Shown: positions 23,005 to 33,620, counted from the stretch's first letter. The stretch is DNA of 64,000 nt from Ignavibacteriota bacterium (GCA_963801355.1 CAWDEM010000004.1:424811-488810); one strand, 5' to 3'. A program made the numbers and translations. The notes: generated by a model from the sequence alone, not told the origin.

Positions 23005-23100
23005 GTCGTTTATTTTCCGAGAGGTCCGAAAAAACGAGGGTGAGTGTGTAGTAATGCCTGAGGGGTCAACCCGTCCGAGGACGCAGGCCAGAAGGGGCAG
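23005..23100 (+). repeat. ~95-bp repeat copy 1 (matches 33524-33620, ~90% identity)
   Basis: gtttattttccga..gg.tc.gaaaa...gagggtgagtgtgtagtaatg.ctgaggggtcaacccgtccgag.gacgcagg. Copy 2 contains a perfect hairpin ttttccga-agggg-tcggaaaa. Confidence 0.85.
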
Positions 23101-23121
23101 CTGCTCGCAGCTCCCTCACCC

Positions 23122-23748
23122 TCAATGGCCGACGTCTGGTGCAGCCGGAGGTGGGGGAGCAACGCCAGACTTGCCTCTTCTCTTTTTGAACTGCTCGAAC
23201 TTGTCTTGGAACGTAAACACGTACTCAAGCAGTGCGTTCGTGAATTCCAGTATGTCTCTCGCATCTTGAGCGGAGACGGTCACACTAACGCTATGGGCGG
23301 CTTCATTGCCAGAGATTCTAAGCGCGTCGGCCCATTCGAAAAGTCGGTTTTCAATAATCCCCTGATCCTTCATATCTTTGAGTGCAGAAGCAAGGTTCCG
23401 GCCTGTGACCTTGTGTTCTTCACAGATTCCCTCCAACGTCTTCCGGCACATAATGGCTGCTGCTGTGAACGCCTTTGTTCCAAAACAGGCTTGCGCCTCT
23501 TCGTAGGCTGAACGGATAGTCTTAGGGATCGTGGGGCTAACAGTTTTTTCCTTCGCAGGGTATATTTGAGAGGGTTCACTAAAACCCGATCCTTCATCAA
23601 CTTGGAGCATTAAGAACGGGCGTGCACATCGTGGACATTTCGCGAAAGTGTACCTGCCCAGCATCTCCACTTCGTCTTCGTATTTCTCGTACGTGAAAAG
23701 TTCTTGTCCATCAACGATAGCCTCGCATTCCAGGCACCTAATTAGCAT
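23122..23748 (-). CDS. Zinc-ribbon + DUF4145 domain protein
   Basis: N-terminal CLECE...CPRC zinc ribbon and a C-terminal DUF4145-like helical domain (AAIMCRKTLEGICEEH...FEWADALRISGNEAAH). The ORF is open to 23823. Confidence 0.65.
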   Translation of the reverse strand: MLIRCLECEAIVDGQELFTYEKYEDEVEMLGRYTFAKCPRCARPFLMLQVDEGSGFSEPSQIYPAKEKTVSPTIPKTIRSAYEEAQACFGTKAFTAAAIMCRKTLEGICEEHKVTGRNLASALKDMKDQGIIENRLFEWADALRISGNEAAHSVSVTVSAQDARDILEFTNALLEYVFTFQDKFEQFKKRRGKSGVAPPPPAAPDVGH

Positions 23749-23860
23749 GAGTTTGTCCTCCGATTGTTGCTCCCCCATGTGACGCGGCTCACCAGCGACG
23801 CTCGCGTCATGATCCGACTCCACGCGGCGTCAGGTGCAGCCGCCGGGTAACCGGTTAAGA

Positions 23861-30014: not shown

Positions 30015-31439
30015 CTACATGAAGAATCGGAATTGGTAGGGCGTGGCACCCAAGCCTGGCATCCGCTTGACTACACGCGCAAGCACCTCCGCATAGCTCA
30101 TGGTCACGGGCAATGGATCGTAGAGCGCGTCGTTATTCCAGTTCATTTTCGAAAGTGCAAGCACCGCACGAGCCGTGTCATCCCAGGTTCCATGGCCGGC
30201 GTAGCGCACGAGGCGGAGCGGGCGAGGAGTGCTCCGCGCGCCCTGGAAATACGATCCACGCCGGCTGATGTCTCGTACGTCGCCATGGGTCCACAGGAGC
30301 GCCTCCCGCGGACCGATAGTAATCACTGTGCCGCGTGAAACTGGGAAGGGGGTCGGTTCTTCTTTCCTTCCTTCTGCACGATCATTGTCGATGCGCACGC
30401 CGCGCCAACCCACATTCTGCACCACCTGAAGGAGATCGGCCGCCTCACACAGATGGAGGGCCTCCATGGCGCCGTCAACCTCATCCCGCTTGAACTCAGT
30501 GGTCTTGTGGACCATCACGCGGCGGGGAGAGCGCCCAGCGTGTCGGTGACGGTAAAGGTCCAGTGAGCGGGTCATGACCCGAAACATCTCATTTCGTGAG
30601 AGAAACGGGTTGTCTCGCTGGACCTCGACCTCGTGGGCATCGTAGGCCACAAATTCCATTCCCGAACCCTCGGCGTCAAACACCTGACTGCAGCAGGTCA
30701 CAAACCGCGGCCGGTCCGATTCAGGGGGGCGAATAGCGTACGATATGCCGATGTAGGCTGTCTCCGGATCCATCTCCGCAAGCTTCCAAGGCACTCCACC
30801 AGCCTTCGCGTAAAGTGCAAGCCCAATGCGCCACATGACGCTGGCTCGGTCCGGGTACGCGAGAGCCCTGTCCTCCCGGACCAGCTGAATGGGCAGTCCC
30901 CGAGGAGCCGTAGCAGCTTTCAAGTGGTCATGGAGATCGAAGTCCTCAGCTGCGCCGCCGACAAAACCGAGGGCCCAACGTTGTGGGAGGTAGATACACA
31001 AGATGTCAAATTCGGTACGGTGAGCCTCAAGACTTTGAATCGCCCGTACCAATGCGTCGGCAAGTAAGACGTGAGGTGTCTTGGAAGTGCGGAACTCGGC
31101 TTCGAATTGCGGCCTGAGTTCGACGTGACAGTGACCACCAGCACTCCGCGTGTGCAGCCCGAAGACGGTCGGAAAACCGGGCCACTGGGGGAGGTAGTCC
31201 TTGCGCTCAGTCGGAGCGTACGTGGCATTGAGTTCTTTCATGAAGCCGTACAGGCGGGGGCTCTCGCCTGCTGGGGCCAAGGTCGCAACGCGAATAGGGT
31301 CAGGCACCAGGCCAGCCGAATAAGGGCCGAACCGGAGCAACCCACGCAACGGGTGAACCTCACGATCGCTGGTGCGGTCCGGGTGGAAGGCAAGCTTGGG
31401 TTCAGGCAGCCACACGTGTGGGAGAATCTCGCTACTCAT
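30015..31439 (-). CDS. Short prokaryotic Argonaute (MID-PIWI, likely catalytically inactive)
   Basis: The size (~474 aa) and a PIWI-like conserved strand LALYAKAGGVPWKL are consistent with a short pAgo. The ATG overlaps the TGA of the upstream SIR2-APAZ gene (ATGA at 31436-31439). The ORF is open to 31463. Confidence 0.65.
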   Translation of the reverse strand: MSSEILPHVWLPEPKLAFHPDRTSDREVHPLRGLLRFGPYSAGLVPDPIRVATLAPAGESPRLYGFMKELNATYAPTERKDYLPQWPGFPTVFGLHTRSAGGHCHVELRPQFEAEFRTSKTPHVLLADALVRAIQSLEAHRTEFDILCIYLPQRWALGFVGGAAEDFDLHDHLKAATAPRGLPIQLVREDRALAYPDRASVMWRIGLALYAKAGGVPWKLAEMDPETAYIGISYAIRPPESDRPRFVTCCSQVFDAEGSGMEFVAYDAHEVEVQRDNPFLSRNEMFRVMTRSLDLYRHRHAGRSPRRVMVHKTTEFKRDEVDGAMEALHLCEAADLLQVVQNVGWRGVRIDNDRAEGRKEEPTPFPVSRGTVITIGPREALLWTHGDVRDISRRGSYFQGARSTPRPLRLVRYAGHGTWDDTARAVLALSKMNWNNDALYDPLPVTMSYAEVLARVVKRMPGLGATPYQFRFFM

Positions 31440-33257
31440 ACCCGAACTCTCTTTGAGAAACATGTGTCCGAGGAGAGTCGAAAAGCGGCATCGACGCCGT
31501 CTCCAATACCCAGAGCGCGAAATTCGCTACCGTCACCGGCGAGCAAGTCCGCCCAAAAAGTGATCAACTCATTCAGCTGCCGGTTATAGCGTTTGACCGT
31601 GCGTCCTCGAGCGAGGTCAGCAGCAGCTGCCTTGTTGCCATCAGTGATGCCGTCGAAGACAGTGCGTGGCTCGACCAGCAGCCATAGGCGGTCATCGGCC
31701 CAATCCAGACAGATCCCGAGGCCCTCGCGCCATTGCAGCTCGGGATGATCTTTCACCGTCCCGCTAACCACCCCTACCAAGCGCTGTAGCGGCGCCCAGG
31801 CTGCGTCCTTCGGGTCAGTCGGCGCAAGCAGATCGGTCCTGTGCCGACGGATGGCGTCGAAGCCAAACCGACGCATGAGCGCATGGGTCAGCGCTTCGCG
31901 GAGCAGTCCACGCTCACCGGATTCGTAACGTAAGCGATTGGTTTCTATGGTATGGAGGTCGAAGCCAGTTATGTCATATCGGCCAAACGCGCTTCGCACG
32001 TCTGCATCTGAGCCGAAGGCCAGGACGCATGCGTGCGTGCGGGCAACGAGAACGTTCACGCGAGCACGTTCTACCGCCTCCCGCACCTCAGCGAGTCCAC
32101 CTACCTGACAGACCACGCGCCGACACACACTCGGCATCTGAACAACAGGCAGGGCGTTGAGGCGCACCACCGGCCAGCCACGCCCGCCGTCCGAACGCGG
32201 TGCTGCGCTCCAGCGCCGACGCTCCGTAGCGAACGTATCGAGCACCTTAGTATCAATACCCTTTCGCAGGCGCACCAAATCGCGCAGCGCCTCGTCGAAG
32301 TTCTCAACCCCTACCAACGCCGCATCCACTCCCGCCCTGACTGCACGCGTCAGTAGTTGACCAACGCGAGGCAGCAGTGGGTCGTCGCCGCGGTGTAACC
32401 AAAAAAGTCCAGCCGGGTAAGCGCTGTTGTGCTCCAACGCCTCTTCGAGCGCGTTCATGATAGAGTCATCGCGGCCGCTGTAACCGATCACCACAAGCCC
32501 AAATCTACGGCACGACTCGACCAACACCTGCCTCAGGCGAACGTCCTGGTGTCTCAACTCATCACCCGTATTCTTCAACCGCCGCGAGTGAAAGTCACCA
32601 TGTAGCTTTACTTCGATTGGCCAACGTCCCTCGTTGATGAGCTGTAACGCCTGGTCCGGCGCGTCAAGGGCTACGGTCGTCAGGGTCCCCGTGGTTTGAT
32701 ACACTTTGGCGCAAGCATCTGCTACGAGAGAGTCAAAATTCGTCGTCCACACCAGACGCGTGAGTTGCGCGCGCATCAGCGTGGCAAGTGCCAAGTGCCC
32801 GTAGGAAGGCTTCGCCCCGGTCATCTTCGCATCTAAGTAGGCTCGCCGATCTGCTTCGGCCGGATATACCGCCTCGAACAGGGTAGCGTACTCGTCCGGA
32901 GAGCCCGGCGGCGGCAGATTCTCCGAGGAGTCAATGTGGGCCTGCAACTGCGCTCGAACCGCCGGATTAGAAAGATCAGGACACGGTTTGGAGCGAGGCT
33001 CGGCGCTGACTGACGAAAAGCTGCTGTTTGAACTCCCACACCATATCCGAGGCGGTGGGAACACCTGCGGAGGCTGAAGCACCGGCGCCGAGTAGCCACA
33101 TCAGGTTTCCGGCGCGCAGTGAAAAGCGCCGTGCGAAGTCATCGGCGCCGATCTGGTTTGGTGTTGCCTCAGTGTTCATAAGACGGCCACCAACAACACG
33201 AACTGGATTTCCACACGAGTTCGTGGCTAATTGGAAGATCCTAATCTTCGCCGACAT
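31436..33257 (-). CDS. SIR2-APAZ protein (short-pAgo partner, SPARSA-type NADase effector), apparent frameshift near 5' end
   Basis: The main ORF 31436..33082 carries the SIR2 core (SYGHLALATLM...VWTTNFD...VIGYSGRD) and a ~250-aa C-terminal APAZ-like region. The NAD-binding N-terminal motif LMWLLGAGASASAGVPTASDMVWEF is encoded in a different frame (32976..33257). Confidence 0.7.
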
Positions 33258-33523
33258 ACCTGGGCAGCGTAGGATTGTCTTCCCACATAAGCCGTCAAAC
33301 TGGCATCAGCAGGGTATCGCTAATACTCAGGTTGAGCTCTAATTCGCGAATGTGTTACTCATGCGGATCAGCTTCGGCTTTCGATCCCCCCGAGTATACA
33401 CCAGGTATTGCCTACTCAGACAAGGTACAACAATCGCTCGAGTCCGTCAATGGTGGTCGTGAAAGTGAGTATGGGCCCGGATTTCGTTGCGTGGTGTCCC
33501 TGCGGGAGAGGCTGACACAAAGA

Positions 33524-33620
33524 GTCAGTTTATTTTCCGAAGGGGTCGGAAAAGTGAGGGTGAGTGTGTAGTAATGTCTGAGGGGTCAACCCGTCCGAGA
33601 GACGCAGGAGAAGGGGGGAC
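33524..33620 (+). repeat. ~95-bp repeat copy 2 (matches 23005-23100)
   Basis: See copy 1; the two copies bracket the HNH/DUF4145 - hsdMSR - Ago/SIR2 cluster. Confidence 0.85.

Follow-up and report, generated by a model that had tools for sequence, protein, structure and literature searches.

In the 64,000-nucleotide stretch of Ignavibacteriota bacterium DNA analysed here (GCA_963801355.1 CAWDEM010000004.1:424811-488810, called the window below), three copies of an intergenic repeat of ~112 nt are found, all on the same strand and all within 13.4 kb. Copies 1 and 2 (23008–23119 and 33528–33639, 112 nt each) bracket a 10.5-kb cluster of defence genes, and a third, diverged copy is present at 36260–36359. 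Tentatively, and with a confidence that falls somewhat short of even, we interpret these repeats as a small lineage-restricted family of oriented intergenic elements that mark the ends of transcription units or the junctions of modules in an integrated island. The repeat is a short interspersed intergenic repeat, a known kind of element. Its observation as a pair of repeats bracketing the cluster is real and lies far beyond chance; nothing shows that the repeat moved the cluster. The alternatives considered below are not fully exclusive of the interpretation that we prefer.

Three copies of one repeat

The two closest copies correspond to the same-orientation direct repeats of ~95 bp described in the original prediction, which could be extended to 112 nt in each copy. 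Without gaps, 23008–23079 matches 33528–33599 on the same strand over 72 nt, with 89% identity and a start-to-start distance of 10520, and in a gapped global alignment 97 of 116 columns are identical (84%). Exact sub-words of 21 and 22 nt shared by the two copies occur exactly twice each in the window, compared with 0.01 and 0.00 occurrences predicted from shuffles, and a chance match is ruled out by these counts. An assembly artefact is ruled out as well. The copy 1 junction (a gene for a 248-aa HNH-like protein, the DUF4145 gene, the gap with the repeat, and a 187-aa open reading frame (ORF)) is reproduced on a 3.2-kb Logan contig, assembled independently from run ERR12037368, which spans it, so that the repeat is not a mis-join; in addition, copies 1 and 2 share no exact match longer than 22 nt. 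Both copies are intergenic, as had been claimed. Copy 1 ends 2 nt from the stop codon of the DUF4145 gene (23122–23124), which agrees with its description as lying just outside that gene, whereas the same description is loose for copy 2, located 349 nt upstream of the start of the SIR2-APAZ gene (33179, placed by homology) and ~85 nt past the stop of a CPBP/Rce1-like gene (33724). Next to copy 1, on its left side, 70 nt are enclosed by a direct repeat of 12 nt, TCGCAAGGTCGT (22916–22927 and 22998–23009), possibly the scar of a small insertion or duplication; the right-hand unit overlaps the first two bases of copy 1.

A search of the window with nhmmer and a profile made from copies 1 and 2 gave one extra significant match (36281–36353, E 9.9e-6, 20.9 bits), compared with a best score of 11.2 bits in 100 dinucleotide-shuffled windows. 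Copy 3 was matched over about 36250–36375 when the profile was rebuilt from all three copies or replaced by a covariance model, and neither search revealed a fourth copy in the window, even with the filters of the covariance model off. Copy 3 is located 2.6 kb from copy 2, between a SnoaL-like gene (stop at 36425, 72 nt away) and the gene of a 226-aa protein (start at 36072), and the genes flanking it are unrelated to the defence cluster. Its core is 57–62% identical to those of copies 1 and 2.

The divergence of copies 1 and 2 is uneven along their length. Their core is identical at 51 of 54 positions (94%), the left segment, with an AU-rich hairpin, at 23 of 28, and the right segment, with a GC-rich hairpin, at 23 of 34, yielding a significant difference between the core (51/54) and the flanks (46/62, Fisher p = 0.005). 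Copies 1 and 2 are the youngest pair of the family, and the contrast between their near-identical core and the much less similar hairpins beside it indicates a recent event of duplication or gene conversion; unlike the uneven divergence itself, this recombination history is something that we infer. When all three copies are compared over the GC-rich hairpin segment, the identities are 24/45 for copies 1 and 3, 14/37 for copies 1 and 2, and 18/45 for copies 2 and 3. Copies 1 and 2 are therefore no closer to each other in this segment than either is to copy 3, and only the core and the AU-rich hairpin appear to have been recently shared. It is also possible that copies 1 and 2 are substrates for RecA-type recombination, by which the 10.5-kb segment could be deleted or swapped.

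Anatomy of the element and its position among the genes

When read on the minus strand, the element starts with the GC-rich hairpin, continues with a core of ~54 nt, and ends, in copies 1 and 2, with the AU-rich hairpin followed by TAAAC. In plus-strand coordinates, the AU-rich hairpin, the core, and the GC-rich hairpin are found at 23013–23032, 23035–23087, and 23094–23115 in copy 1, and at 33533–33553, 33555–33608, and 33613–33636 in copy 2. All three copies retain the GC-rich hairpin, each with its own stem sequence (GGGAGCTGC...GCAGCTGCCCC in copy 1, GGGGACG...CGTCCCC in copy 2, and GGGGAGC...GCTTCCCC in copy 3); in RNAalifold it comprises nine pairs, two of which are changed on both sides. 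The tail past this hairpin is TTCT in copies 1 and 2 and TTTTGT in copy 3. The core, which on the minus strand reads ...CTCGGACGGGTTGACCCCTCAGRCATTACTACACACTCACCCTC, is present in copies 1 and 2 and, in a diverged form, in copy 3, whereas the AU-rich hairpin and the TAAAC that follows it are absent from copy 3. The perfect hairpin that had been noticed in copy 2 is the AU-rich one, with a stem of 8 bp, TTTTCCGA-AGGGG-TCGGAAAA (33533–33553); compared to this perfect stem, the corresponding hairpin of copy 1 has one mismatch or two G-U pairs.

The three copies are preceded, on the minus strand, by the stop codon of a gene (that of DUF4145 2 nt away, that of the CPBP/Rce1-like gene ~85 nt, and that of the SnoaL gene 72 nt) and occupy the widest gaps in this block of minus-strand genes, with the next gene start 266, 349, and 188 nt away for copies 1, 2, and 3, respectively. 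In the arrangement that we propose, each copy would fill the space separating two successive transcription units of the minus strand, with its GC-rich hairpin forming the 3' end of the upstream unit, or else stabilising or protecting it, and with the promoter of the next unit placed further downstream of the element, as is seen for copy 3 only. In that copy the GC-rich hairpin (36332–36353) is scored as terminator-like on the minus strand, with the tail CTTTTGTCTG, and a promoter-like site, TTGACA-17-TATCTT, begins 24 nt after the copy in the minus-strand direction, so that copy 3 is framed exactly by a terminator-like hairpin on one side and the next promoter-like site on the other. The cluster would appear bracketed because a copy is found at its end as well as at the end of the unit before it (the 226-aa, 212-aa, and CPBP genes). 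Unlike the existence of the repeats, their copy number in the window, their orientation, and their position relative to the genes, this terminator or 3'-end role is one that we infer.

Several results weigh against such a role, and against a lineage-restricted family in general. Three sequences only are available for comparison, which makes the covariation evidence for the GC-rich hairpin weak, and the GC-rich hairpins of copies 1 and 2, followed only by TTCT, fail the terminator scan. Canonical terminators are not enriched in the core region of the genome either, with 22 found compared to 16.2 +/- 4.5 expected. The fold energies of the full element are no better than those of shuffled sequences on either strand (z from +0.3 to -1.4), and a stable RNA structure was thus rejected as not significant. 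Additionally, a pure terminator role leaves unexplained the 94% identity of the 54-nt core, which lies downstream of the hairpin. The restriction to one lineage is, in turn, supported by searches for further copies, which gave no exact match to 27-nt patterns of the repeat in 185,579 species-representative genomes, no exact-word match in viral contigs of IMG/VR, only two chance 19-mer matches with unrelated flanks in Joint Genome Institute (JGI) metagenomes, and no BLAST match in plasmids; pAgo loci and Ignavibacteriota TruA loci, 1.29 Mb in all, contained no copy by nhmmer or the covariance model. The scans of the large collections used exact words of 19–27 nt, which diverged copies such as copy 3 would escape, and the number of copies is that of the 64-kb window and not of the whole genome.

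Another explanation, offered as one option in the original prediction, is that the repeat is a shared cis-regulatory site or a small RNA, with the core either bound by a regulator or transcribed, and with the 187-aa ORF, the SIR2-APAZ operon, and the 226-aa gene co-regulated through it. Conservation of the core above that of its flanks in copies 1 and 2 would be expected of such a site, every copy lies upstream of a gene start, and direct reading of the core reveals repeated TGAGGG motifs together with an imperfect palindrome, CTGAGGGG-TCAA-CCCGTCCGAG. The distances to the gene starts are, however, long and variable, and in copy 3 the core is conserved no better than the hairpin segment. No sigma-70-like promoter was found in or beside copies 1 and 2, where a terminator is lacking as well, and the window contains no match to a Bacteroidetes-type promoter (TTTG...TAnnTTTG). 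A small RNA is disfavoured by the fold energies given above, by the lack of a complementary target in the window (blastn-short), and by the comparison with Rfam 15, in which no covariance model matched at its gathering score and only chance-level matches appeared at E <= 10; a known RNA family is thereby ruled out. With no positive support found for it, we regard a regulatory or small-RNA function of the repeat as decidedly unlikely.

Two candidate coding remnants were also rejected. On the minus strand, the reading ...SDGLTPQ[AT]LLHTHP...GK, ending with a stop codon, has non-synonymous changes in five of the six codons that differ, and its frame is broken by a 1-nt indel, while the plus-strand ORF M[PS]EGSTRPR... 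is frame-broken in copy 1.

A second repeat family is present in the window at 36060–36240 and 51262–51445 (core at 36128–36173 and 51330–51375), upstream of the 226-aa gene and of a large gene encoding a repeat protein of the type IX secretion system (T9SS), respectively. Its copies carry sigma-70-like promoters on the minus strand (TTGACA-17-TATCTT, 36236 to 36208, and TTGACA-17-TACCAT, 51440 to 51412), and ~45 nt past the promoter both have the hairpin GGCCTCTTCGTCCGATGGATGGGGAGGCT, identical in the two copies, with a stem of 13 bp and a T-rich tail (36164 to 36136 and 51366 to 51338). By its layout, this second family looks like a promoter with a short terminated leader, either an attenuator or a small RNA. 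The very large gene at 46550–51151 (minus strand) consists of tandem repeats of ~119–120 nt (~40 aa) and is broken into several ORFs; it has an F510_1955-like N-terminal part of the glycosyl-hydrolase/BNR type and a T9SS C-terminal sorting domain.

The bracketed defence genes and the island

In the order of minus-strand transcription, the genes between copies 2 and 1 are SIR2-APAZ, short pAgo, hsdM, hsdS, hsdR, the 248-aa HNH-like gene, and DUF4145, a content that is as originally listed, with the HNH assignment made by eye only. The SPARSA-type SIR2-APAZ and short pAgo genes occupy 30015–33179 on the minus strand (PADLOC Aga_SIR2 4e-180 and pAgo_I 7e-198); such pairs are NAD+-depleting SPARSA defence systems (bioRxiv 10.1101/2021.12.14.472599; PMC10781750). 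They are followed by the type I restriction-modification genes (24632–29813, minus strand), by the 248-aa protein (23861–24607, minus strand), in which the motifs were read by eye and which has no Pfam or PADLOC match, and by the PD-T7-4-like DUF4145 protein (23122–23823, minus strand; best PADLOC hit PD-T7-4); these last two genes form the final part of the transcription unit ahead of copy 1. Beyond copy 1, and outside the bracket, lies the 187-aa ORF (22179–22742). Several of the enclosed genes are frameshifted: hsdR is split into two ORFs, hsdS into at least two, and hsdM into at least three, and SIR2-APAZ is interrupted by a 1-nt insertion near 32977–32982, outside any homopolymer, its four homologues having 580 aa. 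In turn, pAgo, DUF4145, and the core genes at 1–17 kb are intact. This pattern of broken and intact genes, with the breaks in 24632–33257, suggests a decaying defence cluster and not a general sequencing error.

Between copies 2 and 3, the module at 33724–36072 (minus strand) comprises the 226-aa and 212-aa proteins, neither of which matches any family, and a split CPBP/Rce1-like ('Abi') protease. Possibly it represents a further defence-type cassette, so far uncharacterised. A 1.6-kb JGI contig encodes a homologue at least 90% identical to the 212-aa protein.

The SIR2-APAZ/pAgo segment shows nucleotide homology of 74–80% to contigs from unrelated organisms, confined to 29996–33227, and in four other contigs (L083–L086) the homology stops at 33155–33227, ~300 nt short of copy 2. 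The ~112-nt repeat is not present at these four homologous loci, and travel of the repeat with the SIR2-APAZ/pAgo module is thereby ruled out. The identity of pAgo proteins across phyla is 80–86%, and the SIR2-APAZ/short-pAgo pair is a transferable module with sharp bounds, one of at least three defence modules that make up the bracketed 10.5-kb DNA as a mosaic. The searches gave more than 2600 homologues of pAgo, many with ~80% amino-acid identity and with annotations that include Verrucomicrobiota, Desulfobacteria, and Sulfurifustis. The GC content of the SIR2-APAZ/pAgo module is 60%, compared to ~53% for the adjacent island DNA.

All of these genes lie in a larger integrated segment. The window contains a tRNA-Pro(TGG) gene (17911–17986), the 3' half of which (attL, 17943–18002, plus strand) is duplicated in a partial tRNA-Pro copy (attR, 51992–52051, plus strand) over 60 nt with 93% identity. 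Synteny from TruA to tRNA-Pro is kept in four relatives, which past the tRNA have no DNA in common with the window; TruA of the window shares 93% identity with that of a metagenome-assembled genome (MAG) labelled 'Bacteroidota bacterium', 86% with that of one Ignavibacteriae MAG, and 82% with that of another. Since the four relatives share the tRNA locus only and the tRNA 3' half is duplicated, the region of 17.99–52.04 kb represents a 34-kb integrated island, with attL as its left bound. A tyrosine integrase gene (18049–19071, minus strand) is located directly past tRNA-Pro, followed by genes for an AAA_25 helicase-like protein and an archaeo-eukaryotic primase (AEP). A second integrase (52127–53170), 25% identical to the first, comes next after attR, and a primase-helicase is also found there (region 52127–58742); the island is therefore part of a tandem of at least two elements. 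The primase and AAA_25 ORFs of the first element have 82 nt in common and could be parts of a single primase-helicase gene that has been frameshifted, similar to that of the 584-aa protein of the second element. The primase, with its AEP-TOTE domain, and the 187-aa ORF beside copy 1 (region 19768–22742) recovered only themselves in a word-based search of 5.8 billion proteins; IMG/VR contains no relatives of the primase or of the DUF4145 protein.

All three copies of the ~112-nt repeat sit within this island, in its minus-strand gene block, and within the window the family is restricted to the island. Profile and sequence searches of the window reveal no relation between the repeat and the att site of the island, which is the 3' half of tRNA-Pro, used by the integrases of the island, and not the ~112-nt repeat.

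The composite nature of the island and of its cargo is relevant to the possibility that the repeats are a recombination scar, which corresponds to the option of cassette borders in the original prediction. In such an event, a circular or linear donor carrying one copy and 10.4 kb of defence genes would have been joined by a Campbell-type crossover to a copy already present where the 187-aa ORF adjoined the CPBP gene, leaving a hybrid copy on each side. The direct orientation of copies 1 and 2 and their exact bracketing of the defence-gene block would follow directly from it, and identical core stretches of 21 and 22 nt with diverged ends are what a crossover between diverged homologues would leave. 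The cargo is also horizontally mobile, as the identity of pAgo across phyla indicates, and the copies do stand at junctions of modules of different origin, with an uneven divergence that fits recombination or gene conversion; that part of the option is retained. However, the bracketed DNA is itself a mosaic in which the SPARSA module stops 300 nt from copy 2, annotation of 23.1–36.1 kb with Pfam, PADLOC, and PHROGs revealed no recombinase or transposase, and the third copy, which follows the unrelated SnoaL gene and is not associated with defence genes, shows that the family exists apart from any such insertion. Near-identity over ~50 nt would be a poor RecA substrate, and no empty site, alternative cargo, or circular junction was found, the flanking 187-aa ORF and primase being those with no homologues among the 5.8 billion proteins. 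On balance, we consider such a scar unlikely.

Site-specific recombination was considered as a further explanation, with the copies acting as att-like or integron-attC-like sites served in trans by a recombinase encoded elsewhere. Like attC sites, all three copies are placed 3' of co-oriented minus-strand gene blocks, the copies themselves are co-oriented, and the window encodes two tyrosine recombinases. Integrons are moreover known to carry defence genes, and defence cassettes occur in sedentary chromosomal integrons (bioRxiv 10.1101/2024.07.02.601686). A search of both strands around all three copies by regular expressions nevertheless gave no attC boxes R'' (RYYYAAC) and R' (GTTRRRY) spaced by 50–150 nt, and an imperfect palindrome extending from end to end, as in attC, was not seen, the folds yielding separate local hairpins instead. 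Both tyrosine recombinases adjoin the tRNA-Pro att copies, no recombinase is present within the bracket, and the 52127–53170 integrase scores 43 bits on the integron-integrase (IntI) model, for which the cutoff is 265. The putative cassettes of 10.5 and 2.7 kb would be far above the typical size. If the repeats were att sites bounding an integrated element, there should be just two of them, one at each end, with which the third copy at 36260–36359 does not agree. Recombination sites of this kind are, in our view, highly improbable.

Relation to known elements and significance

Short multi-copy repeats in intergenic DNA may also arise by independent insertions, here into three gaps, of a non-autonomous mobile element such as a miniature inverted-repeat transposable element (MITE) or an element similar to repetitive extragenic palindromic (REP) sequences or palindrome-associated transposable elements (PATE). 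Copies of differing age, with hairpins near both ends, agree with such an origin. In contrast, there are no terminal inverted repeats, as on direct reading neither of the ends, GTTTATTTT... and ...CCCTCAC, is an inverted form of the other, and there is no target-site duplication, since the flanking bases differ at all three copies. The hairpins at the two ends are unrelated in sequence, unlike the ends of IS200/IS605 elements, and neither a transposase gene nor one for a REP-associated tyrosine transposase (RAYT) is present among the ORFs scanned. The lack of a copy in the 1.29 Mb of related loci also speaks against insertions of this type, which we find very unlikely. Taken by sequence and structure, the repeat does not qualify as an attC site, as an att site of an integrated element, or as a MITE.

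The interpretation that we prefer, oriented repeats at the ends of units or modules, finds its closest functional resemblance in the 3'-end intergenic repeats of the REP, bacterial interspersed mosaic element (BIME), and enterobacterial repetitive intergenic consensus (ERIC) types, whereas by position the repeat most resembles attC in cassette arrays that carry defence genes. REP, BIME, and ERIC repeats are 30–130 nt long, bear hairpins, and lie in intergenic DNA, typically 3' of co-oriented genes, where they are possible 3'-end stabilisers or terminators. REP-type repeats, moreover, reach a high copy number in the genome and have an associated RAYT gene. The repeat described here is similarly short, hairpin-bearing, intergenic, lineage-specific, and located after gene 3' ends, and its copies have diverged unevenly. 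It differs from them in that three copies are seen, in one island, with no GTAG-headed palindromic unit and no RAYT among the ORFs scanned, and in that its most conserved part is the non-palindromic 54-nt core. In common with integron attC sites and with attC clusters that lack an integrase (CALIN), it forms co-oriented repeats of ~100 nt, alike within one genome and placed 3' of gene blocks, with anti-phage genes between them; the R''/R' boxes, the end-to-end hairpin, and IntI are missing, however, and the would-be cassettes of 2.7 and 10.5 kb are multi-gene mosaics with internal module borders.

Two further types of elements share part of this arrangement. Cis-mobilisable elements (CIMEs) found beside integrative and conjugative elements (ICEs), as well as pseudo-staphylococcal cassette chromosome (pseudo-SCC) elements, also have recombinase-less cargo between direct repeats within a composite tandem island at a tRNA gene, as is the case for the cluster described here. 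The internal repeats of CIMEs and pseudo-SCC are copies of the att site of the island itself, whereas here the repeat is unrelated to the att site in the tRNA-Pro 3' half. Correia elements of Neisseria (100–150 nt) likewise lie in intergenic DNA at junctions of exchangeable gene blocks, where they may act as terminators or promoters and offer homologous stretches for recombination. They occur in hundreds of copies and have 26-nt terminal inverted repeats and a TA target duplication, features that are all missing here.

We can speculate that the ~112-nt elements are handles at the junctions of a cassette array, integrase-independent or trans-acting, in Ignavibacteriota islands, in which recombination at the conserved 54-nt core placed after the terminator of each module would insert, delete, and shuffle multi-gene defence modules, a function like that of attC achieved by an unrelated structure; we would give this idea very little credence. 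On present evidence, the repeat is an unremarkable lineage-specific intergenic repeat. Its practical value is that of a marker of transcription-unit or module boundaries in the island, and it also carries a caution, in that direct repeats flanking a defence cluster are not necessarily the borders of an insertion. If it is true that such junction repeats mediate the gain, loss, or swapping of defence modules, they would represent a simple, homology-based route of defence-island turnover in a poorly studied phylum.

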